The position numbers were made by a program, and so were the translations under genes. Below, in pieces: positions 46,691 through 56,859 of a stretch of 64,000 bases of DNA. The notes under the pieces are model-generated. The model ran no database searches. It was not told where the DNA came from and was given only the letters and a program-made list of their open reading frames with translations. How positions within the stretch are numbered: position 1 is the first letter of the stretch; each line of letters opens with the position of its first letter. The DNA comes from Pirellulales bacterium (GTDB lineage Bacteria; Planctomycetota; Planctomycetia; Pirellulales; PALSA-1355): contig CAVTBU010000009.1 in NCBI GenBank assembly GCA_963733035.1, positions 96,001-160,000 of the forward strand. The letters are read 5' to 3'.

Positions 46691-47858
46691 CTAGAGCACT
46701 CGGCCAAGCCCGTCGACCAACTGGTCGATCATGGACCGCGTGTGCGTGGCAAAAACGGCGACGCGCAGCATACCATCGGGCCCTGCGCCTGCATAGTTGC
46801 GGGTGTAGGCGATGGCGATACCAGCCGCGAGCAACTGCTGCTGAACGCGCTGCATGTCGGCGGCATTTTCGAGGCGGAAGCTAATGATGGGTGTCGGCCA
46901 GGGTTCAATCTCCAAGCCAAGGTCTCGCAAGGCGTCGCGCGCGTATTTGGCATTGTCCGCTAACTGCGACCTTAGGGCCGGCTCGGTCTGTATGATCTCC
47001 AGCGCCCTGGCCGTTGCGGCGGCGACGGGAGCGGCCGGCGCGCTTGCGCCGCGAAACCAGCCACTCGACTGGCGCACGTCGCTCAGGAATTCGCGCGTGC
47101 CGACGATCGCGCCGCCCTGACCGCCGACGGCTTTGCTCAGCGTCGTGGTGTGGTAGACGGCCGTGCGCTCGACTGCCGGCGCAGACGCGTTAATTCGCTG
47201 CGGCGCGACGCCCGCCAGTTCCAAGCTGCCGCGACCGCCGCTGCCGAGGACGGCCATGCCATGCGCATCATCCACGAGCAACATGGCACCCTGATAGGCA
47301 TCGAGGATCGATAGATAGTCGCCAAGCGGCGCCAACCGGCCACTAGCGGCGAATACACCGTCGGTCATCACCAGCGGGCGCTGGCCTGGGTGCAGTTCGT
47401 GGCGCAAGCAATTCCGACATGTGCTGGGGATCGCGATGCCGAAACGCCAGCGGTGGACGGCTTAGCTCGGTCAGCCAATGCGTAGCCTCGCGCAGACAAT
47501 CGTGTGCCGACTCATCGATGAGTACCAGATCCACGAACTTGCTGAGCGCCGCTGCCAGGGCAAAATTCACGGCGTAGCCACTGACCAGGTAGCAGCACTC
47601 CTCGGCACCGAGAAACGTTGCCGTGCGCCGCTCGACTTCGAGAACTGGGGGACTAGTTCCATAGCCGCTGCGCGTGGTGGCCGTATGAATGCCGTACTTG
47701 ACACACGCCTGTTCGGCCGCCGCGATGACGGCCGGATGGCCTTGCAATGCCAGGTAGCCGGTGCCGGCGAAATACAAACATTCGCGGCCGCTCAACCATG
47801 CGTGCGTTGCCGGCGCCGATTCCATCAGGGGGAAATCATCTGAGGCCGGACGGGACAT
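46691..47858 (-). CDS. Class I/II PLP aminotransferase (8-amino-7-oxononanoate synthase-like), frameshifted near 47405
   Basis: N-half: FAGTGYLAL, SGYAVN, DESAH, FRHRD. C-half: TDGVF, VDDAHG, TLSKAVG (PLP Lys), LRVAV. Confidence 0.83.
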
Positions 47859-47974
47859 GGTCTGCTGCTGGCGAAGGACCGAATGTTGCTGCGGCCACGA
47901 TTTTAGCCCGGAATGAGACCTGGATAGTCTCAAATGATCCCCCGAGGCCGGAATTAATCAGGGATGGGAGGGTA

Positions 47975-48040
47975 TTGACTTGGTGATTTGGGTAATTAGG
48001 GTGGATTCTTACTGCGATCGACTCTGATACGCTGCGCAGC
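47975..48040 (+). promoter_or_regulatory. Sigma70-like promoter plus GCTGCGCAGC palindrome upstream of small protein A
   Basis: TTGACT(47975)-N16-TAGGGT(47997); palindrome at 48031-48040. Confidence 0.45.
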
Positions 48041-48142
48041 ACTTCGAGTCGCAAGCACCCGGTTTCCGCCCACGTTGGAAAATCCTTCGTTGGGCTCGTT
48101 ATCTCATTGCCCCACTGCGACTTTTGACGAGGATTTCCCCCT

Positions 48143-48571
48143 ATGAAGAACATTCTGATTCCCTGTGCCGCGTTGGCGCTGGTCTGTGGTCTGATTTCCG
48201 TGTCGACGGCGGGCGAACCCGCTGCCATTTCCGACTCAACGCTCGGCAGCATGGGCTTGGGCGGCATGCAGAAGATGTCGGATACCGATGGCCTTTTGGT
48301 CCGTGGTAAGGGCTACACCGGCTACGGCGGTGGCACCTCGGCCTCCGTTTGGGGCGGGAGCAGCGCCAACTGGTACGGTGGCCAGTCGTCGAACAACAAC
48401 TATGAAGCCAGCTCGTCGTGGTTGGGCCACGGCTCGTCGGCCACGGGTGGCAGCCTGAGCTTCGCCGGCAAGATCCAGGGCAGTTACGCGGCCGACCCGA
48501 CCGGTTCGGCTCTGTCGCTCACGATTTGCGGTGGTTTCGCCGGTGGCGGGGCCTTCGCGATTGCTCATTAA
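48143..48571 (+). CDS. Small secreted Gly/Ser-rich protein A (candidate fibre/amyloid or peptide precursor)
   Basis: Sec signal (..VSTA), pro-motif LGSMGLGGMQKMSDTDGLLVRGKG, G/S/N/W-rich core; paralog of the next two ORFs. Confidence 0.85.
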   Translation: MKNILIPCAALALVCGLISVSTAGEPAAISDSTLGSMGLGGMQKMSDTDGLLVRGKGYTGYGGGTSASVWGGSSANWYGGQSSNNNYEASSSWLGHGSSATGGSLSFAGKIQGSYAADPTGSALSLTICGGFAGGGAFAIAH

Positions 48572-48606
48572 CCCAGTCTCGGTCCCAACGCCGACCTCAC
48601 TCTTCG

Positions 48607-48646
48607 AAGACCTGGTTGCCCCCCGCTCGGCAGCCAGGTCTTTTTT
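48607..48646 (+). terminator. Rho-independent terminator after gene A
   Basis: AAGACCTGGTTGCC-ccccgctc-GGCAGCCAGGTCTT followed by TTTT. Confidence 0.85.
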
Positions 48647-48769
48647 AATTGGATTTGCCAAAAACATGCGGGCTTGGGGAACATTTGGACGCTGAAACGC
48701 CGGTTTTTGGCAGCGAGCAGGTGCTGTTGGAGAACTAGTGAAGATAGTAGGAATATACCGATCACCCTG

Positions 48770-48823
48770 TTGACAATGGTTTTAGCGGCAATTAGTCTGC
48801 TACTCGATTGGTCGCTGCGCAGC
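48770..48823 (+). promoter_or_regulatory. Sigma70-like promoter plus GCTGCGCAGC palindrome upstream of small protein B
   Basis: TTGACA(48770)-N17-TAGTCT(48793); palindrome at 48814-48823. Confidence 0.55.
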
Positions 48824-48959
48824 ATCAATCCGGTTTGACAGTCGAGGCCAGCAGGCCGCTGTTGAACGCGTTTTCCCTCATTTTGCCAGGCGCATGCCAG
48901 CCATGTCGCCACCTTCGGGGGATGTCTAGCTACGGTGATTCCACTTTCATGAGGACACA

Positions 48960-49355
48960 ATGATGAAGCACGTTGCAATTGCTTGTGCGGCAGTGATGTT
49001 GTTTGCTGCCACGGCGACGGCTGCCGAGCCGGTTGCCAAGTCGACCCTCAGCAGCATGGGCCTGGGCGGGATGCAGCAGATGTCGGACAACGACGGTCTG
49101 GCTGTCCGCGGTAAGGGTACGTTCGCCCACGTATGGGGCGGAAGCCAGGCGAATTGGTACGGCGGTCAGTCGTCGACCAACAACTACAATGCAGGCGCCC
49201 AGTGGCTCGGCAAGAGCTCGACCGCCGTTGGCGGTAGCTTGAGCTTTGCTGGCAAGCTGCAGGTCAGCGGTGCCGCCGATCCGACCGGCTTCGCCATCCA
49301 AGGCCAATTGGGTGTTGGCTTCGCCGGTGGTGCGGCGTTCGCCAAGGCTTGGTAA
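48960..49355 (+). CDS. Small secreted Gly/Ser-rich protein B
   Basis: GAGGA RBS; Sec signal (..ATATA); LSSMGLGGMQQMSDNDGLAVRGKG; core collinear with A. Confidence 0.87.
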   Translation: MMKHVAIACAAVMLFAATATAAEPVAKSTLSSMGLGGMQQMSDNDGLAVRGKGTFAHVWGGSQANWYGGQSSTNNYNAGAQWLGKSSTAVGGSLSFAGKLQVSGAADPTGFAIQGQLGVGFAGGAAFAKAW

Positions 49356-49404
49356 CAAGCGGAATCGCTTGCTCATTGCGGCAAGTGCTCCCGTCTTTGC
49401 ACAA

Positions 49405-49451
49405 GCTGGCCCTGTCGTCGAATAGTCGGTGACAGGGCCAGCCCCTTTTTT
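49405..49451 (+). terminator. Rho-independent terminator between genes B and C
   Basis: GCTGGCCCTGTCGTCGA-atag-TCGGTGACAGGGCCAGC ccc TTTTTT. Confidence 0.8.
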
Positions 49452-49464
49452 CAGCGAGGCCTCG

Positions 49465-49794
49465 ATGACAAAGATCTTCGTGTTAACGATCGCCCTGGTG
49501 ATTTCGTGCAGTGCAATTGCGGTGGCGGCCGATCAAGCCGTCTCCGCCGCGACGCTGGGAGCGATGGGCATCGGCCAGATGCAACCGCTGTCGGACGAAG
49601 ATGGCCTGGCCGTACGCGGTAAAGGCACTTTCGCCAACGTCTGGGGTTTTAGCCAGGCGAGGTGGGGCGGCCAATCGTCGTCGAACAACTACTCGGCCGG
49701 TTCCAGCTGGTTGGGACAGAGTTCTTCGGCATTGGGAGGAAGCCTAAGCTTTGGTGGGAAGGCGCAACTCGGCTTTGGTCATTTCGGTTGGTAA
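49465..49794 (+). CDS. Small secreted Gly/Ser-rich protein C (short paralog)
   Basis: GAGG then ATG 49465; Sec signal (..AIAVA); LGAMGIGQMQPLSDEDGLAVRGKG; lacks the C-terminal AADPTG segment of A and B. Confidence 0.83.
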   Translation: MTKIFVLTIALVISCSAIAVAADQAVSAATLGAMGIGQMQPLSDEDGLAVRGKGTFANVWGFSQARWGGQSSSNNYSAGSSWLGQSSSALGGSLSFGGKAQLGFGHFGW

Positions 49795-49822
49795 CGACCA
49801 TCTGAGGACGCCAGTAAACGAC

Positions 49823-49865
49823 CGGGCCCTGTCCACCTGTAAAGTTGGACAGGGCCCGTTTTTTT
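49823..49865 (+). terminator. Rho-independent terminator after gene C
   Basis: CGGGCCCTGTCCA-cctgtaaagt-TGGACAGGGCCCG followed by TTTTTTT. Confidence 0.85.
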
Positions 49866-49882
49866 GCTTTCCGCAAGGTGCG

Positions 49883-51070
49883 CTAGTACATGATACCCGC
49901 ACCGATCGTCAGGCCCACGAGTTGGAACAATATGTCGCCAGCCTGAGTGGTGGCAAAGCTCGAAGCGGTTCCGCTGTTGGCGACCGACAGTGCTCCCGCG
50001 GCCACTCCGGCATTCGCGTCCCAGTATTGCCACTCGATGCCCGTGCGAAAGAACGCTCGGCCGGGAAGGCACCGCAAGCACGCATCCCATTGCAGTCCGG
50101 CACCGAGTTCCATGATGAACATGTCGCCGTTGCCCTTGGCCAGGGCGCCGTCGGTCGACTCAAAAAACCCGGAACCGTTGGCCGCTTGCGTGTTGGTTTG
50201 CGCGGTGGCAACGCCGTTGCCCCACAAGATCGAGTAGCGGTTGGTGAAATAGGCTTTGAGAGCCCCATCGTCGCAGAACAGCGGCCGCAGCCCCCACACT
50301 CCGAATGTCAAGCCGGCCCCGTTGAACTGCTGGCCGGCGTACGACATCGACTGCACGAGGTCGCTGCCAAACGTGTTCTGTGTCCATAAGCTGCGGTCGT
50401 TGTTTACCGAGGCGTACCGCGCTCCCAGGAATCCGTACATGTCCCAATTGTGCCAGCAGAAGCGGCGCTGCACCTCCAGGTCGACAGTATAGATGTTGAA
50501 CGTGTCGAACAGGATGACGCCACTCTGCACGGCGTCGGGGATTGCCGGAATAAAACCGTTTGCCGACGTCCCGGAGTTCCAGTAGCGGCCAACCAGCCCC
50601 CAGCACTCACCCATCACACCCATGGTGACTCGAGGCCCGACAAGGAGCCCACCTTCGACCGAACCGAGTGCCGAGTTGTTCACAATCGACACGTCGCCGA
50701 GGCTGTTCGAAAAACCATTGTTGAGAAAGTTGCGACTGATTTGCGGCCAAAAGAAGGTCGCCTCGATGCCCACGACGAACTGGCAACGCGGGCCGCAGCC
50801 GCCCGTGTAGCAAGTCGTGCACTGCCCTGGAAGCGGAGCCACGGCGCTTTGTGCTTCGGGCGTTTCAACCGGCTCCTGGGCATCCCAGCGGCTGGTAGGC
50901 ACTTGCGCCGGAGCGGGTGTCGCCGGCTGCACGGTTTGTTGCGCGGAAACCTGTTGGATGAGAGGCGGACGGAACACCGGTTCGGTGAAATCGTCGCCAT
51001 GAGCTGAGCCGGCGGCGGCACATCCAATCGCCGCGATCAGCGAGCAGAACCATTTTCGAGTTGTCTTCAT
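49883..51070 (-). CDS. Putative outer-membrane beta-barrel protein (planctomycete Lpg1974/BBP7-like)
   Basis: GAGGAG RBS; signal peptide; Pro/Gln-rich linker; Cys cluster CTTCYTGGCGPRC; amphipathic strands (GIEATFF, DLEVQRR, GARYASV, ELGAGLQW, TGIEWQYW); C-terminal GLTIGAGIMY. Confidence 0.72.
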   Translation of the reverse strand: MKTTRKWFCSLIAAIGCAAAGSAHGDDFTEPVFRPPLIQQVSAQQTVQPATPAPAQVPTSRWDAQEPVETPEAQSAVAPLPGQCTTCYTGGCGPRCQFVVGIEATFFWPQISRNFLNNGFSNSLGDVSIVNNSALGSVEGGLLVGPRVTMGVMGECWGLVGRYWNSGTSANGFIPAIPDAVQSGVILFDTFNIYTVDLEVQRRFCWHNWDMYGFLGARYASVNNDRSLWTQNTFGSDLVQSMSYAGQQFNGAGLTFGVWGLRPLFCDDGALKAYFTNRYSILWGNGVATAQTNTQAANGSGFFESTDGALAKGNGDMFIMELGAGLQWDACLRCLPGRAFFRTGIEWQYWDANAGVAAGALSVANSGTASSFATTQAGDILFQLVGLTIGAGIMY

Positions 51071-51377
51071 CTCCTCACCCCTCCTGGGAGAGCTGGTTGC
51101 CACGGCGGGCATCGCCAGCGAATGCGAACCGTATTTGTCTAATGTTCAGAACGCGCTTGGGTCGTCCACCGCTTCGAACGCCTCGGCCGGTCTTACCCCA
51201 TCCGACTTTGACGTTCGATCCCCGCGGCAAACCGCGAACCGGTGCAATGGCGCGAGGCGCCACCGCACTTTTCGTTGCACGTATCATCGTCCGCATGATC
51301 GGACGAATTGATGCCTCATGTCTTCGGCGGATCAACACTTACAACCGATACGCCCAGAATATGCGTTACGGCTGACG

Positions 51378-51597
51378 CAACCGTTACAGATTCCGCCGCA
51401 AGTAGTCTTCCGGCCGGACGCGTGAGATGCTGTCAACCCCCGGCGAGCAGCCGCAAGTCCAAGGGGCAAAAAGAGAAAGCTGCGTAATGCAGCCGTCTGT
51501 AAAGCTGGGGATCCTGGCGAAACTTTGGCGGCTCGTATGACTGTTCTCATTGTATGGGATATGGCGGTCGATCCAGTTCCAAGGGCTGTAACGGTTG
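51378..51597. promoter_or_regulatory. 12-bp inverted pair in the divergent promoter region
   Basis: CAACCGTTACAG (51378-51389) and CTGTAACGGTTG (51586-51597) are exact reverse complements. Confidence 0.5.
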
Positions 51598-51747
51598 TAC
51601 CCGGATCGAAGAAGGTGCCGCAGCCTTGGAAACAAGTTGAGTTGAGACCATCAGGTTGCCTGGTTCGCACAAATCTCGTGGTGTGCGGGCCAATTTGCAG
51701 GCTACCGAACCGACAGGCAGCGGGCATCAGTAGTAAAAGGGTGGGCC

Positions 51748-53097
51748 ATGGATGAACCGCACGGGATCTCGGGACGACGCCTCCCGCAGCGATCCGCGCG
51801 ACGAGTCTTCGCCGCAGGGCTACTAGTTCTGTGCGCGCTCAACGTGGCCCCGGCCCAGGGCGACGAGCCGGAGGGTCCCCGCGCCCTTTCGGCCGTCGCA
51901 ACAACACCCGCGGCACAGCCAATTTCGCTGCCGCCGAGGTCACACCGCCTGCCGCCGGTCGAAGCGTCAACGACGTCCGGGTTTGCGAGCTACGCCGCCG
52001 GCCAATCGGCGCCACTGTTCGCCGACCCGTACGACGGCCAGCAGGTCAACTACATAACCGCGGCACCCGGCGGGCCGGCGGCTTCGACGTCAAATCCGCT
52101 CACGGCCCTGACTCCCGGTCAGCCATTGATTCGTTTTTCGGGCATGCAAGATCCAGACGCTCCGCGTCCGCCGGCCGAGAAGAACGCGGATTCCGCCGCC
52201 GAAGGCGGCCCAGATACGGAAGCTGGCGAGGGGGCCGAACAAACCTACGGACAAGCGCCGACCAACAACTCGCTGCAGTTTCTGCGCGACGTCGACGTCT
52301 TGCTCGCGCCTGGCAAGTGGCAGTTCGATACCGGCTTCGTCTACACGCACTTCTCCAATAACTTTCCCGTCGCCCTCATCAACGGTGGAGGAGACGTGGT
52401 GGGCGTGGAACAAGGCGAGGTACGGCGCCGGTTGCTCTACACTCCGCTGGCCTATCGCTACGGCATAACGAACAACATTCAGTTCTTCTCCTTCATGCCA
52501 GTCGGGTTTTCCAACACGCAGTTCTCGTCGCTCAACACCAGCGAAACCACGAACGTCAGCGGTTTGGGCGATCTGACGGCCGGCGTGAGCATCCACCTGA
52601 TCAAAGGAGAAGACCAGATGCCGGACGTGATCGGCACGGTCGGCTTCACGGCGCCGACCGGAAAGTTTTCGACGCCGATCTTTGGTCTTGTGCCGGGATC
52701 CAATCTGGGCCAGGGATACTGGGCCTACAACGCGCAATTGCTGTTCATTAACCGTTACGACCCGGTGATCGTGTTTTACGGAGGTGGTTACCGGCACTTG
52801 TGGGAGCGCAGCTTCAACGGTCAGCTGATCGCGCCAGGCGAACAAGTGAACTACATGCTTGGCGTCGGCTTCGCCGTCAACGATCGCGTTACACTGAGTT
52901 CCACGTTCCAGGGCTACTACATTACAAATACGTTCATCAACGGCTCGAACCTTCGCGGCTCGAACCTGGAGCCGTTGAGCATGCGATTCGCTGCAACGAT
53001 CGTGCGAAACTGCCGAATTATCGAACCATTCGTGCAATTAGGGGCGACGAATTCCGCCCCGCGGGTCAACGTAGGCGTGGTCGTAACGTTCTACTAG
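51748..53097 (+). CDS. Outer-membrane beta-barrel transporter (FapF/SphA/MetA-pathway-like)
   Basis: Signal peptide (..APAQG); long P/A-rich periplasmic arm; then LLAPGKWQFDTGFVY, YRYGIT, SGLGDL.AG, TAPTG, GQGYW, YDPVIVFYGGGY and GVGFAVND; aromatic C-terminus TFY; adjacent to a C39 peptidase. Confidence 0.75.
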   Translation: MDEPHGISGRRLPQRSARRVFAAGLLVLCALNVAPAQGDEPEGPRALSAVATTPAAQPISLPPRSHRLPPVEASTTSGFASYAAGQSAPLFADPYDGQQVNYITAAPGGPAASTSNPLTALTPGQPLIRFSGMQDPDAPRPPAEKNADSAAEGGPDTEAGEGAEQTYGQAPTNNSLQFLRDVDVLLAPGKWQFDTGFVYTHFSNNFPVALINGGGDVVGVEQGEVRRRLLYTPLAYRYGITNNIQFFSFMPVGFSNTQFSSLNTSETTNVSGLGDLTAGVSIHLIKGEDQMPDVIGTVGFTAPTGKFSTPIFGLVPGSNLGQGYWAYNAQLLFINRYDPVIVFYGGGYRHLWERSFNGQLIAPGEQVNYMLGVGFAVNDRVTLSSTFQGYYITNTFINGSNLRGSNLEPLSMRFAATIVRNCRIIEPFVQLGATNSAPRVNVGVVVTFY

Positions 53098-53153
53098 TCG
53101 CCCCGCCAGTCGAGCATGTCAGGTCTTTCCAGCAGCGAATAAGGGAGCTTCGC

Positions 53154-53921
53154 ATGGCCGCACAATTCGCTCATCGCTGGGTCTGGCACCCACGAAACAT
53201 CCGCAACACTTGTCTGGCGTGGCTGGTGGCGTGTTTCCTGTCCGCATTGGCGGCTCCGGCTTGCGCTCAATTCAACCAATACACGCGGGCTCCTATCCGA
53301 AACCCAGATCGAATCATTCGCGAATACGTTTGGAGCTACAAGGAACTGCGCAAGCGCCAGGTGGTAATGCAGAAGCTCGACTACTCATGCGGCGCCGCGT
53401 CGCTGGCAACGATCTGCCGTTACTATTGGGGCGATAATATCACGGAGGAGACTTTTCTGCGGCTGATTCCGAAGCTGAAGCTCACCGCCGCACAAATCAA
53501 GGATCGCATTGAGAACGGACTCACGCTGACCGATCTGCGCGACATGGCCAACCTGGCGGGTTACCAGTCGTCGATGGGGAAAGTGAAGTTCTCGGAACTG
53601 GCCGAGGCCAAAGTGCCGGTAATTGTCGGTATCACGGTGCGCAAGCACGATCACTTTGCCGTCTTTCGCGGCACCGACGGCTATTACGTCTATCTGGCCG
53701 ACCCCATTCGCGGCAATATCCGCGTGGTGGCCGACACGTTTGTGCGGGAATGGCAACAGAATGCGATCCTGGTCGTCGCCAAGCCCGGCGCGAAGGTAAA
53801 GGAGGTCAATCCGATGGGCGTGCGGTTCCCGGAAATCTTCCGTGGGCTGCTGAACGACCAGACGGTGAACCGCAACTGGACAATGAGCACGGTTCCCAAC
53901 CCGGTCCGCATCGGACAGTAG
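53154..53921 (+). CDS. Stand-alone C39 family cysteine peptidase with signal peptide (FapD-like)
   Basis: GGGAG RBS; signal ..LSALAAPACA; QKLDYSCGAASLATI (Gln/Cys), HDHFAVFRG (His), YLADPIRG (Asp); no ABC or TM domain. Confidence 0.88.
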   Translation: MAAQFAHRWVWHPRNIRNTCLAWLVACFLSALAAPACAQFNQYTRAPIRNPDRIIREYVWSYKELRKRQVVMQKLDYSCGAASLATICRYYWGDNITEETFLRLIPKLKLTAAQIKDRIENGLTLTDLRDMANLAGYQSSMGKVKFSELAEAKVPVIVGITVRKHDHFAVFRGTDGYYVYLADPIRGNIRVVADTFVREWQQNAILVVAKPGAKVKEVNPMGVRFPEIFRGLLNDQTVNRNWTMSTVPNPVRIGQ

Positions 53922-54079: not shown

Positions 54080-54778
54080 ATGTCCGAGATGTCCGAGCCA
54101 AGTTCGTCGGAATACCACGGTGAGCGCCTGGAGTTCTTAACGGTTCTGGGGCTGGCTCCGCCGGTTACCGAGGAGGACGTCAAGCAGGCATACCTCGTCA
54201 AAGCCCGCACCGCGCACCCGGACCAGGGAGGAGACGTCGAGCAGTTCAAGCGGCTTCAAGAAGCGTTCGAGCAGGCTACGGAGTACGCCCGTTTCAAGTC
54301 GAGCCGCATGCAATGGCTCAGCCGGTGGGTCGAGCAATATGCCGAGCAAGACAAGTTCATCGAGCGCATCAAAGGCCTGGGGGGGCACGTCGAGGTGAAG
54401 GCCTCGGACCCGATGACCCGCTCGATCGGGCCCGACTTTGCCGTCGTGCTCGACAAGCTGACGGGCATCTCGCTGGAAGGTCCTAACATCGACGACGCCA
54501 CGATGGCGGAACTCGTGAGCCAGAAGCGGATGCTCGCCGGCCTGCACAAACTAGCACTCCTCGATACGTCCGTCACCTACGTTGGTCTTCTCAAAGTTCG
54601 AGAGTTGCAAAACCTTCGCGAGTTGGATTTGAGCGGCACGGAAGTCGACCCCGCCACGCTTGAGCCAGTGCTGCGAGAACTGCGCTCGCTCGAAGTGCTG
54701 AAACTCGACCGGACCGGCATTGGCTGGCCGGCACGGGTGAAGTTGCGAGTGCGGTATCGCAACTTGACGATCTCCTAG
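54080..54778 (+). CDS. J-domain (DnaJ) plus leucine-rich-repeat protein
   Basis: VLGL....TEEDVKQAY...AHPDQGG..EQFKRLQEAFE (HPD motif); C-terminal LRR units LHKLAL, LRELDLSGT and LEVLKLDRT. Confidence 0.8.
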   Translation: MSEMSEPSSSEYHGERLEFLTVLGLAPPVTEEDVKQAYLVKARTAHPDQGGDVEQFKRLQEAFEQATEYARFKSSRMQWLSRWVEQYAEQDKFIERIKGLGGHVEVKASDPMTRSIGPDFAVVLDKLTGISLEGPNIDDATMAELVSQKRMLAGLHKLALLDTSVTYVGLLKVRELQNLRELDLSGTEVDPATLEPVLRELRSLEVLKLDRTGIGWPARVKLRVRYRNLTIS

Positions 54779-54816: not shown

Positions 54817-56859
54817 ATGAAACGCTACCTTGCGATTGCCGTTTCTTTCTTGCTCGCTTCGAGTTTTTATACATCGGTTTGGGCGGCAGAAGCGCTACGG
54901 CCGCCCGCTGTTCCGCTGGTCACAATCGATCCCTACTTCAGCTGCTGGTCCATGGGTGACGAGCTTGCCGGCGACTGGCCCAAGCACTGGACCGGCCGAC
55001 CACACGCGATGACCGGCCTGGTGCGTGTTGACGGCCAGGCGTGGCGGTTCATGGGGGCCGCACCCGAGGTAAAGCGATTGGCCGATCAACTTTCGGTGGA
55101 CGTTCAGGCCACGCAGACGGCATATCGCTTTCGAGCGGGGGACGTGGACCTGACCGTCACCTTTACTTCGCCGCTACTGTTGGAGGACTTGGACCTGCTG
55201 TCGCGCCCGGCCAGTTACGTGACGTTCAAAGTCACTGCCAACGACGATGAAGCACACGCCGTGCAGCTATATTTCGACGCAACCGCCGAATGGTGCGTCA
55301 ATGATCCGCGGCAGCAGGTCGAGTGGAGCCGTGTCGCGGTGTGCGGGTTGGACGTGATGCGAGTTGGTTCGGTGGATCAGAAAGTCCTCCAGACCAAGGG
55401 GGACAACGTACGCATCGATTGGGGATATTTCTACGTGGCCGTGCCTGAGAAGCAGGCCACCTGCGTAGTCGCCTCGGACAAGACGGCGCACGGCGCGTTC
55501 GTCGCTGGCAATCCGCTACCGGCCCAAGACGATCCGGATCAACCGCGGATGGCTCGCGATCGTTGGCCGGTGCTGGCGGCCGAGTTCGAGCTGGGCAAGG
55601 TCGGCCAGACGCCCATTCAACGGCATGTGATCTTGGCCTATGACGATCTCGAGGCGGTGGAGTACTTTGGTCAGCCCCTAAAAGCGTGGTGGCGCCGAGG
55701 AAAAAATGCCGCGGCCGAATCGATGCTGGCCGCGGCCGAGCGAGACTACGTGGCGGTGCTCCAGCGCTGTGACGTATTTGATGCGCAACTTGCCGAGGCG
55801 GCCGCGGAGGCCGGCCGCGATGAATATGCCGCGCTTTGCCGGTTGGCATATCGCCAGGCAGTTGCCGCCCACAAGTTGGTGGCCGGACCGGATGGGCAAC
55901 CGTTGTTCTTTTCGAAAGAAAATTTCTCAAACGGTTCGATCGGTACGGTGGACGTCACGTATCCGTCGGCGCCGCTGTTCTTGATCTACAATCCCGTGCT
56001 CGTGCGGGGGATGGTCGAACCGATCTTTCACTATGCCGAGCGTGGCGGCTGGACGAAACCGTTCGCCGCGCACGACGTGGGAACCTATCCGCTGGCCAAT
56101 GGGCAAACCTATCCCGAGGACATGCCAGTTGAAGAGTGCGGCAACATGATCATCTTGGCCGCCGCCCTCGCCCGCGCCGAAGGCAACGCTGATTATGCCG
56201 CGAAACATTGGGAAACATTGACGGGGTGGGCCCGGTATCTCAAGAGCGAGGGATTCGACCCGGCCAACCAACTCTGCACCGATGATTTTGCCGGACACCT
56301 GGCCCACAACACCAACTTGTCGATCAAGGCCATCGTGGCACTGGGTTGTTACGCTCAACTGGCCGACAAATTGGGGCACAAAGATGTCGCGCGGGAATAC
56401 TCCGCACTGGCCCACCAACTCGCGGCAAAGTGGTCGAAACAGGCCTCCGATGGCGATCACACGCGGCTGACGTTCGACCACCCCGAAACCTGGAGCCAAA
56501 AGTACAATCTGGTGTGGGACAAAATGCTCGACCTGAACCTATTTTCGCCCGAGATTGCCGATCGCGAGATCGCCTACTATCTAACGCGACAAAATGAATT
56601 TGGGCTGCCCCTCGATAGCCGCAAGACGTATACGAAATCGGACTGGATCATGTGGACGGCGGCCATGGCCGATTCGCGCGACGATTTTGCCGCGCTCGTC
56701 CACCCTGTTTTTCGCTACGTGAACGAAACGCCAACGCGCATTCCGTTGAGCGATTGGCATGAGACGACCAACGGCAAGGCGGTTGCCTTTCGCGCTCGAA
56801 GCGTCGTCGGCGGTTACTTCATGAAGCTATTGGCCGAACGTTGGCAGGGAGAACAGTAG
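54817..56859 (+). CDS. Glutaminase A (GtaA)-like / DUF4965-DUF5127-DUF1793 protein, secreted
   Basis: RPPAVPLVTIDPYFSCWS, RIDWGY, KENFSNGSIGTVDV, AHDVGTYP, MPVEECGNM, TDDFAG, SQKYNLVWD, KSDW and ARSVVGG motifs. Confidence 0.85.
   Translation: MKRYLAIAVSFLLASSFYTSVWAAEALRPPAVPLVTIDPYFSCWSMGDELAGDWPKHWTGRPHAMTGLVRVDGQAWRFMGAAPEVKRLADQLSVDVQATQTAYRFRAGDVDLTVTFTSPLLLEDLDLLSRPASYVTFKVTANDDEAHAVQLYFDATAEWCVNDPRQQVEWSRVAVCGLDVMRVGSVDQKVLQTKGDNVRIDWGYFYVAVPEKQATCVVASDKTAHGAFVAGNPLPAQDDPDQPRMARDRWPVLAAEFELGKVGQTPIQRHVILAYDDLEAVEYFGQPLKAWWRRGKNAAAESMLAAAERDYVAVLQRCDVFDAQLAEAAAEAGRDEYAALCRLAYRQAVAAHKLVAGPDGQPLFFSKENFSNGSIGTVDVTYPSAPLFLIYNPVLVRGMVEPIFHYAERGGWTKPFAAHDVGTYPLANGQTYPEDMPVEECGNMIILAAALARAEGNADYAAKHWETLTGWARYLKSEGFDPANQLCTDDFAGHLAHNTNLSIKAIVALGCYAQLADKLGHKDVAREYSALAHQLAAKWSKQASDGDHTRLTFDHPETWSQKYNLVWDKMLDLNLFSPEIADREIAYYLTRQNEFGLPLDSRKTYTKSDWIMWTAAMADSRDDFAALVHPVFRYVNETPTRIPLSDWHETTNGKAVAFRARSVVGGYFMKLLAERWQGEQ

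Follow-up and report, generated by a model that had tools for sequence, protein, structure and literature searches.

The 64,000-nucleotide window analysed here comes from a contig of a soil planctomycete of the Pirellulales (CAVTBU010000009.1) and contains a six-gene module at 48143-53921 (all coordinates are those of the whole window). The module encodes three small paralogous proteins, designated cargo A, B, and C, two outer-membrane barrels, designated barrel 1 and barrel 2, and a C39 peptidase. On balance, we read the locus as a two-step module of the Fap type, for secretion and maturation, that has a cargo family of its own. Very probably, A, B, and C are the cargo of the pair formed by the peptidase and barrel 2, a FapF-type pore, and the peptidase is likely to cleave a conserved pro-region located behind their signal peptides. 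A surface or extracellular beta polymer, either a fibre or a matrix, is tentatively proposed as the product. The six genes, all of which an earlier note on this DNA had placed correctly, are as follows.

48143-48571, + strand: cargo A, 142 amino acids (aa); putative Sec signal, pro-region to Val-Arg-Gly, then 87 residues; family profile E 1.6e-68
48960-49355 (start at 48960 or 48963), + strand: cargo B, 130-131 aa
49465-49794, + strand: cargo C, 109 aa; short paralogue without the last hairpin
49883-51112, - strand: barrel 1, 409 aa; the Met at 51070 is the likelier start
51748-53097, + strand: barrel 2, 449 aa; divergent from barrel 1
53154-53921, + strand: C39 peptidase, 255 aa; starts 57 bases past barrel 2

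Linkage of the cargo, peptidase, and barrel genes across genomes

The earlier note had tied A, B, and C to the peptidase and barrel genes, and this linkage recurs in other genomes. Around the peptidase gene of other Pirellulales genomes, 57 loci were collected, and in all 57 the peptidase gene has the pore gene as a neighbour in the same orientation. Cargo genes are present in 47 of these loci and barrel 1 in 46, and contig ends account for most loci missing a component. When only the 39 loci flanked by 6 kb or more on each side are counted, 38 contain cargo and 37 contain barrel 1. A wider scan, in which 185,579 species genomes were queried with the peptidase alignment, yielded 529 peptidase relatives. 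Of the best 79 loci, 78 have the pore gene next to the peptidase gene, 64 contain barrel 1, and 55 contain cargo. Conservation around the cluster is limited to four gene families, and no fifth recurs. The recurrence of these four families together means that the arrangement is not due to chance.

No cargo gene was detected by profile or pattern within 9 kb of the cluster at seven loci (L117, L121, L128, L133, L136, L137, and L139). Five of these seven genomes were searched, and they contain 3-7 leader-bearing genes elsewhere in the genome.

Cargo and peptidase also co-occur at the level of whole genomes. Among 301 Pirellulales genomes, 52 contain both, 3 contain cargo only, 3 contain peptidase only, and 243 contain neither. 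The cargo profile matches 55 of the 301. The peptidase search of the same set returned 55 strong matches, with open frames of 239-401 aa, and 4 weak matches of the ATP-binding cassette (ABC) type, with open frames of 765-835 aa. Fisher's test on this co-occurrence gives a p value of 7.5e-51, computed over genomes that include kin and are therefore not independent. The same patchy presence and absence repeats within at least 12 Pirellulales families, and this repeated patchiness within a dozen families is a stronger point than the p value.

Close relatives are labelled Pirellulales or Planctomycetota, and the cultured strain Bythopirellula polymerisocia Pla144 carries it (L155). Among 401 sampled Planctomycetota genomes, most of which belong to other orders, the two Pirellulales carriers G000 and G047 were the only ones in which leader and pore were detected; two further weak partial pore matches were also obtained. 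Two module-bearing contigs, L112 and L129, are labelled Granulosicoccus sp. and Candidatus Hydrogenedentales, respectively, which may reflect binning error or gene transfer. Tandem peptidase genes are found in L082 and L083, and a duplicated pore-peptidase pair in L038 and L099. The most divergent peptidase-pore pairs are those of L088 and L089, with 38-39% identity to the window's peptidase. Within 9 kb, L089 has no cargo and L088 has a weak cargo match (E 3.5e-6). These two loci may represent a subtype with a different cargo.

The stand-alone C39 peptidase

The earlier note described the peptidase as a C39 enzyme without an ABC domain and related it to FapD, and both descriptions hold. The Pfam scan of the 255-aa protein finds only Peptidase_C39 (E 2.3e-17), that is, a single C39 domain and no ABC domain. 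Against NCBIfam, the FapD model scores 83 bits (E 1.8e-23) and the FilB model 74.2 bits (E 1.1e-20); ABC-fused C39 families reach at most 31 bits on the same protein. Judged from its sequence, the peptidase is closest to FapD and FilB. No FapD match above the cut-off was found among 14 control genomes.

All 42 aligned peptidases share the catalytic residues Gln73, Cys79, His167, and Asp183. In addition, a putative signal peptide is located at the N terminus, which would place the enzyme in the periplasm.

The cargo proteins and their leader

Cargo B and cargo C are 65% and 55% identical to cargo A at the protein level, respectively, and the DNA aligns at 66-79%. Each of the three begins with a putative signal peptide, recognized by eye from basic residues, a hydrophobic stretch, and Ala-x-Ala. 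An alignment of 75 cargo members from the loci divides the proteins into the signal peptide, a sharply conserved pro-region of about 28 residues, and a variable part rich in Gly, Ala, and Ser. The pro-region, which the earlier note had not described, is likely a tag for the peptidase. Its consensus is (V/I)-S-x-S-T-L-x-x-M-G-L-G-G-M-Q-x-M-S-D-x-(D/E)-G-x-x-(V/I)-R-G-(K/M)-G. Leu(-21) and Gly(-17) do not vary among 318 distinct leaders, and conservation ends two residues past (Val-)Arg-Gly. A profile of signal peptide plus pro-region matches 1173 cluster representatives at E ≤1e-3 and 636 at E ≤1e-10. Among 150 listed representatives, the length ranges from 59 to 261 aa and the leader is N-terminal in nearly all.

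The variable part is sparsely charged, with a median length of 78 residues, and is composed of 17% Gly, 15% Ala, and 13% Ser. In the window, the mature parts comprise 57-87 residues; that of cargo A (87 residues) contains 24% Gly, 18% Ser, and 14% Ala. The C-terminal tail is again conserved, as Gly-Gly-x-x-x-Ala-x-Ala-x. Pfam and NCBIfam scans of A, B, and C place no family above threshold and match no Fap subunit model. The only sub-threshold Pfam match is DUF4179 in cargo B (E 0.056, 14.3 bits versus a cut-off of 30.1). Among 129 cargo relatives, all 120 that were listed are unnamed or annotated as 'hypothetical protein', and none of them has a recorded Pfam domain. The cargo proteins thus stand outside the Fap subunit families and contain no FapC-type Asn/Gln repeats (Asn 5.3%, Gln 3.1%), as the earlier note had proposed.

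The AlphaFold2 (AF2) model of cargo B has a mean predicted local distance difference test (pLDDT) value of 77, with block means of 74-90 for residues 51-130. It contains two short helices in the pro-region, followed by four long β strands that form two hairpins.

The number of cargo copies per genome ranges from 1 to 11, with 11 matches on several contigs of one genome (G183). Five cargo genes stand in tandem in L115 (12558-15891). Short forms like cargo C are also present in relatives, at 5695-6015 in L034 and 4347-4661 in L037. That the short paralogue is kept in several relatives hints at major and minor subunit types.

The main rival explanation is that the small proteins are microcin-like antibacterial peptides with a C39-cleaved leader, exported via Sec and then, after a periplasmic peptidase has acted, through an outer-membrane pore, with no ABC exporter. 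The leader does resemble the double-glycine consensus of bacteriocins and microcins. The stretch M-S-D-x-(D/E)-G-x-x-(V/I)-R-G agrees with LSXXELXXIXGG at 5 of 7 fixed positions in one register, the mismatches being Lys/Met in place of the last Gly and Gly in place of Leu at -7. A conserved leader followed by a variable C-terminal part, in 1-11 copies per genome, also suits microcins. Class II microcins are similar to the cargo in composition and length. The weak fold matches of the cargo model are to long hairpins of pore-forming proteins, all below significance and useful as a lead only.

Against this, the locus offers no candidate immunity gene. Immunity-like small genes were sought between the cargo genes and none was convincing, including the frames of 25-54 aa in the 388-base gap between A and B; the tandem cargo arrays of relatives leave little intergenic room for such genes. 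There is no ABC exporter, and no family beyond the four is conserved. The cargo is conserved as much as the machinery: in same-genus relatives, identity is 73% for cargo B, 74% for the peptidase, 70% for barrel 1, and 62% for barrel 2. The short paralogue type kept across relatives fits major and minor structural subunits, and toxin export offers no obvious role for the conserved porin partner. We consider a microcin identity unlikely.

Model of the complex between the peptidase and the leader

The complex was modelled from peptidase residues 40-255 and cargo B residues 21-80, in three runs with three controls. The score is 0.81 in the three runs, versus 0.00 for the best of the three controls. 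The runs share at least 70% of their contacts, and the pLDDT of the partner is at least 62. In calibration, 116 of 157 solved complexes attained the mark used for such models, as did 2 of 215 mismatched pairs.

The predicted interface is formed between cargo B residues 21-53 and active-site residues 73, 76-80, and 165-168 of the peptidase. Within it, cargo residues 44-53 are modelled together with these same active-site residues. Among the residue pairs predicted with the least error, Leu29 is placed near peptidase residue 207, Met32-Leu34 near residues 152-154, and Met37 and Gln38 near residues 142-144. Leu46 is placed near residues 124-126, and Val48 would fit into a pocket lined by residues 124, 125, 159, 201, and 204. 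Docking of the pro-region on the peptidase active site is supported by this model.

Barrel 2 is a FapF homologue

The NCBIfam scan of barrel 2 identifies FapF (E 3.8e-9, 35.8 bits), and the Pfam scan gives Phenol_MetA_deg (E 2.8e-4). A profile built from 47 barrel 2 orthologues and searched against the PDB matches FapF chains only (4 distinct sequences, best E 1.5e-32). The alignment covers residues 15-327 of the 334-residue chain, from the plug-helix region through the last strand. The resemblance to FapF that the earlier note had suspected is borne out, and on sequence grounds barrel 2 is a true FapF homologue, related to the plug and 12-strand barrel of FapF and sharing its PTG motif. The GLGD and APTG motifs reported in that note lie at residues 272 and 302, respectively.

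Barrel 2 starts with a putative signal peptide; a linker of about 130 residues rich in Pro and Ala follows, and then a FapF-type plug helix and barrel (residues ~165-449). Residues 38-165 contain 15.6% Pro and 18% Ala. The linker is poorly conserved, and distant orthologues align only from about residue 150 on. Since the N-terminal ~130 residues are Pro/Ala-rich and poorly conserved, the N-terminal periplasmic coiled coil by which the FapF pore trimerises is not evident.

This linker bears on a further alternative, in which the pro-region would be a targeting or anti-aggregation signal only and the peptidase would cut something else, such as the linker itself. Cleavage of the FapF linker by FapD is raised as a possibility in the accessible part of PMC5557850. 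Barrel 2 provides a comparable disordered stretch of about 130 residues, and the cargo leader has no Gly-Gly at the expected site. In the complex model, however, cargo residues 44-53 and the active-site residues would share one interface. The linker is also poorly conserved, and leader and peptidase co-occur almost perfectly. This alternative is very unlikely, and cleavage of the cargo pro-region is the reading we carry forward.

Barrel 1 is a probable porin of the MOMP/BBP7 type

Barrel 1 was considered as a second FapF-like barrel and rejected. Alignment with the barrel 2 profile by hhalign gives a probability of 1.5%, and the barrel 1 profile finds no match among PDB sequences at E ≤10. The AF2 model has a mean pLDDT of 80.7, with block means of 76-98, mostly above 90, for residues 111-409. 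The modelled strands are up to about 30 residues long, which would extend well past the thickness of the membrane, and the family has conserved cysteines. The best Foldseek match of the model is Legionella porin I (9nh1; E 3.5e-10, template modelling score 0.64-0.71 on target length). Neighbours of barrel 1 in the Atlas carry PF05150 or PF07585. PF05150 is also matched by 6 of 42 barrel 1 orthologues (best E 7.6e-6); the window's own copy has no Pfam match. Barrel 1 is most probably a divergent outer-membrane porin of the Legionella_OMP (MOMP)/BBP7 type, an assignment that goes beyond the earlier note.

The frequent company of this porin raises another possibility, namely that the cargo is retained in the outer membrane together with barrel 1, in a complex where it might form an oligomeric β-barrel cap or porin extension, and that the peptidase and the pore serve for delivery only. 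Barrel 1 is present in 37 of the 39 full-flank loci, its modelled strands would exceed the membrane thickness, and each cargo subunit is predicted to have four long strands and carries the conserved Gly-Gly-x-x-x-Ala-x-Ala-x tail. On the other hand, the C-terminal residue is Phe, Trp, or Tyr in 73 of 245 cargo proteins only, so the classical outer-membrane insertion signal is not general. The first hairpin of the cargo also appears polar, and some clusters have no barrel 1 nearby. Retention of the cargo in a complex with barrel 1 is quite improbable. The proposal below keeps the cargo as a product secreted through barrel 2.

Proposed mechanism and its weak points

The cargo precursors A, B, and C would cross the inner membrane via Sec, as suggested by their putative signal peptides. 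In the periplasm, the FapD/FilB-like C39 peptidase would bind the pro-region, as in the complex model, and would cut at the invariant Arg-Gly or one to two residues beyond. By analogy with LSXXELXXIXGG, we infer that Val would occupy P4 and the invariant Gly P2, with the cut after Lys/Met. By homology with FapF, the unfolded, nearly uncharged Gly/Ala/Ser-rich mature part would then exit through the plugged barrel 2.

The later steps are more speculative. Outside the cell, the mature cargo could fold into two long β hairpins and then self-associate, because two such hairpins cannot be stable alone. Self-association might take place on the porin-like barrel 1, whose long strands would rise above the membrane. 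In its boldest form, the proposal is that the cargo builds a new planctomycete surface polymer of stacked or ringed two-hairpin units, a fibre or tube seeded on a tall MOMP-type barrel, and that the pro-region is the first general recognition code for periplasmic peptidases of the FapD/FilB class. Taken as a whole, this form is somewhat unlikely.

Several results count against the proposal. Both enzyme and pore score far below the NCBIfam equivalog cut-offs, at 83 versus 330 bits for FapD and 35.8 versus 700 bits for FapF. The leader does not contain the canonical Gly-Gly; after Arg-Gly, 57% of leaders have Lys and 23% have Met, either of which would be an unusual P1 if the cut is made there. 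The cargo has no Asn/Gln repeats, and no known structure matches its model significantly (best Foldseek E 0.18), so that neither points to a fibre. The best match in the wide VIA comparison (Z 4.0, root mean square deviation 4.6 over 79 residues) is below the usual noise level. At least four loci (L065, L085, L088, and L089) have no barrel 1 nearby despite enough flanking sequence. The complex model was fed with our own alignments, so that its calibration counts hold roughly, and its pass may reflect likeness to, or memory of, solved complexes of C39 peptidases with leaders. Finally, even in Pseudomonas the substrate of FapD is given as undetermined in the accessible parts of PMC5557850 and PMC6173800.

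Organization of the locus and neighbouring genes

Two terminator-like hairpins stand directly 3' of cargo genes.

48606-48651, + strand: terminator-like hairpin, 15 pairs and a T-run, directly 3' of cargo A
49405-49450, + strand: terminator-like hairpin, 17 pairs and a T-run, directly 3' of cargo B

Cargo C is followed by a 5-pair hairpin with a T-run. The terminator scan of the region gives 6 sites versus 6.7 expected from shuffled sequences, which is not above chance; for the two long hairpins, the placement alone is therefore suggestive. The promoter scan likewise gives 2 sites versus 1.8 expected, not above chance. The module has the same guanine-cytosine content as its flanks. The flanking genes are kept in same-genus relatives, so the module is not a recent insertion. 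In the genome to which the window belongs, the cargo genes number exactly three, and the peptidase and the pore are each matched once. Five soil-metagenome DNA runs contain small shares of the sequence, and no RNA run containing it is listed.

Upstream of cargo A, an aminotransferase class I/II gene (46691-47933, - strand) is split into two overlapping frames, 46691-47407 and 47343-47933, which are out of frame with each other. The two halves form a single frame in relatives L034 and L035. The split is explained by a frameshift, which reflects either an assembly error or a pseudogene.

Directly 3' of the peptidase gene lies a gene for a protein with a DnaJ domain and leucine-rich repeats (DnaJ-LRR; 54080-54778, + strand). 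Five close-relative loci (L033-L037) have the same gene immediately 3' of the peptidase gene, and in L038, L044, and L045 it lies at a distance of 3-8 kb. All eight loci are from genomes of the same family, and outside that family the DnaJ-LRR gene is not part of the module. It is followed by a gene for a GtaA-type glutaminase-like protein (54817-56859, + strand) that contains DUF4964, DUF5127, and a six-hairpin domain (E 6e-145) and is unrelated to the module.

Comparison with known systems

The closest parallel is the Fap system of Pseudomonas (fapABCDEF). In both, a plugged outer-membrane barrel with a PTG motif, homologous between the two systems, is encoded beside a stand-alone C39 peptidase with a signal peptide, and Sec-dependent cargo is encoded alongside. 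Extra peptidase copies also occur in both, here in L082 and L083; the accessible part of the PMC6173800 supplement remarks on multiple FapD copies. Unlike the Fap operon, the module contains no homologues of FapA, FapB, FapC, or FapE and its cargo no Asn/Gln repeats. At its N terminus the pore is rich in Pro, with no evident coiled coil; the locus also encodes an additional MOMP-type barrel, and the cargo has a clearly defined conserved pro-region. Pore and peptidase are far below the NCBIfam equivalog cut-offs, and the hosts are Pirellulales, not Proteobacteria. FapE loses about 70 N-terminal residues according to the accessible parts of PMC5557850, PMC6173800, and 10.64898/2026.10.01.755530. 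The fap operon has been expressed heterologously in E. coli (PMC5557850).

The Acinetobacter Fil pilus system, which builds a surface fibre as this module may do, also has a stand-alone C39 peptidase, FilB, whose model the peptidase matches. The match is below the FilB cut-off (74.2 versus 475 bits), and no Fil model was found at E ≤0.1 among the other six window proteins scanned. FilA is named as a pilus subunit in the accessible part of PMC11784438.

Double-glycine bacteriocin and microcin export likewise relies on a C39 peptidase and on an N-terminal leader; that of the module partly agrees with LSXXELXXIXGG, a consensus listed with the C39 protease in the accessible part of PMC1538908. Here, in contrast, the leader sits behind a Sec signal, Gly-Gly is replaced by Arg-Gly-(Lys/Met)-Gly, and the peptidase is predicted to be periplasmic and is not ABC-fused, with the DnaJ-LRR gene as its next neighbour. 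As for Legionella MOMP (PF05150) and planctomycete BBP7 (PF07585), the fold of barrel 1 is closest to 9nh1 and its Atlas neighbours belong to these families. It differs in that the window's copy has no Pfam match and in that its clade is specifically linked to the peptidase-pore pair.

Co-localised fapD-fapF homologues are reported from 'five additional phyla' in the accessible part of PMC6173800, so the pair alone is not new. No published description of such a system in Pirellulales was found in the literature searched. What is new is the Pirellulales cargo family of four-strand mini-proteins, the Arg-Gly-(Lys/Met)-Gly leader without Gly-Gly, the linked MOMP-type barrel, and the breadth of the comparative support. 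For the Pirellulales, the module represents a new candidate surface or matrix component together with a putative dedicated outer-membrane secretion route. The substrate and recognition signal of FapD-type peptidases are an open question in the Fap field, to which the module brings 318 natural leaders and a docking model. With invariant positions in the leaders and a confident docking model, the substrate question becomes testable with a peptide and the purified 25-kDa enzyme.

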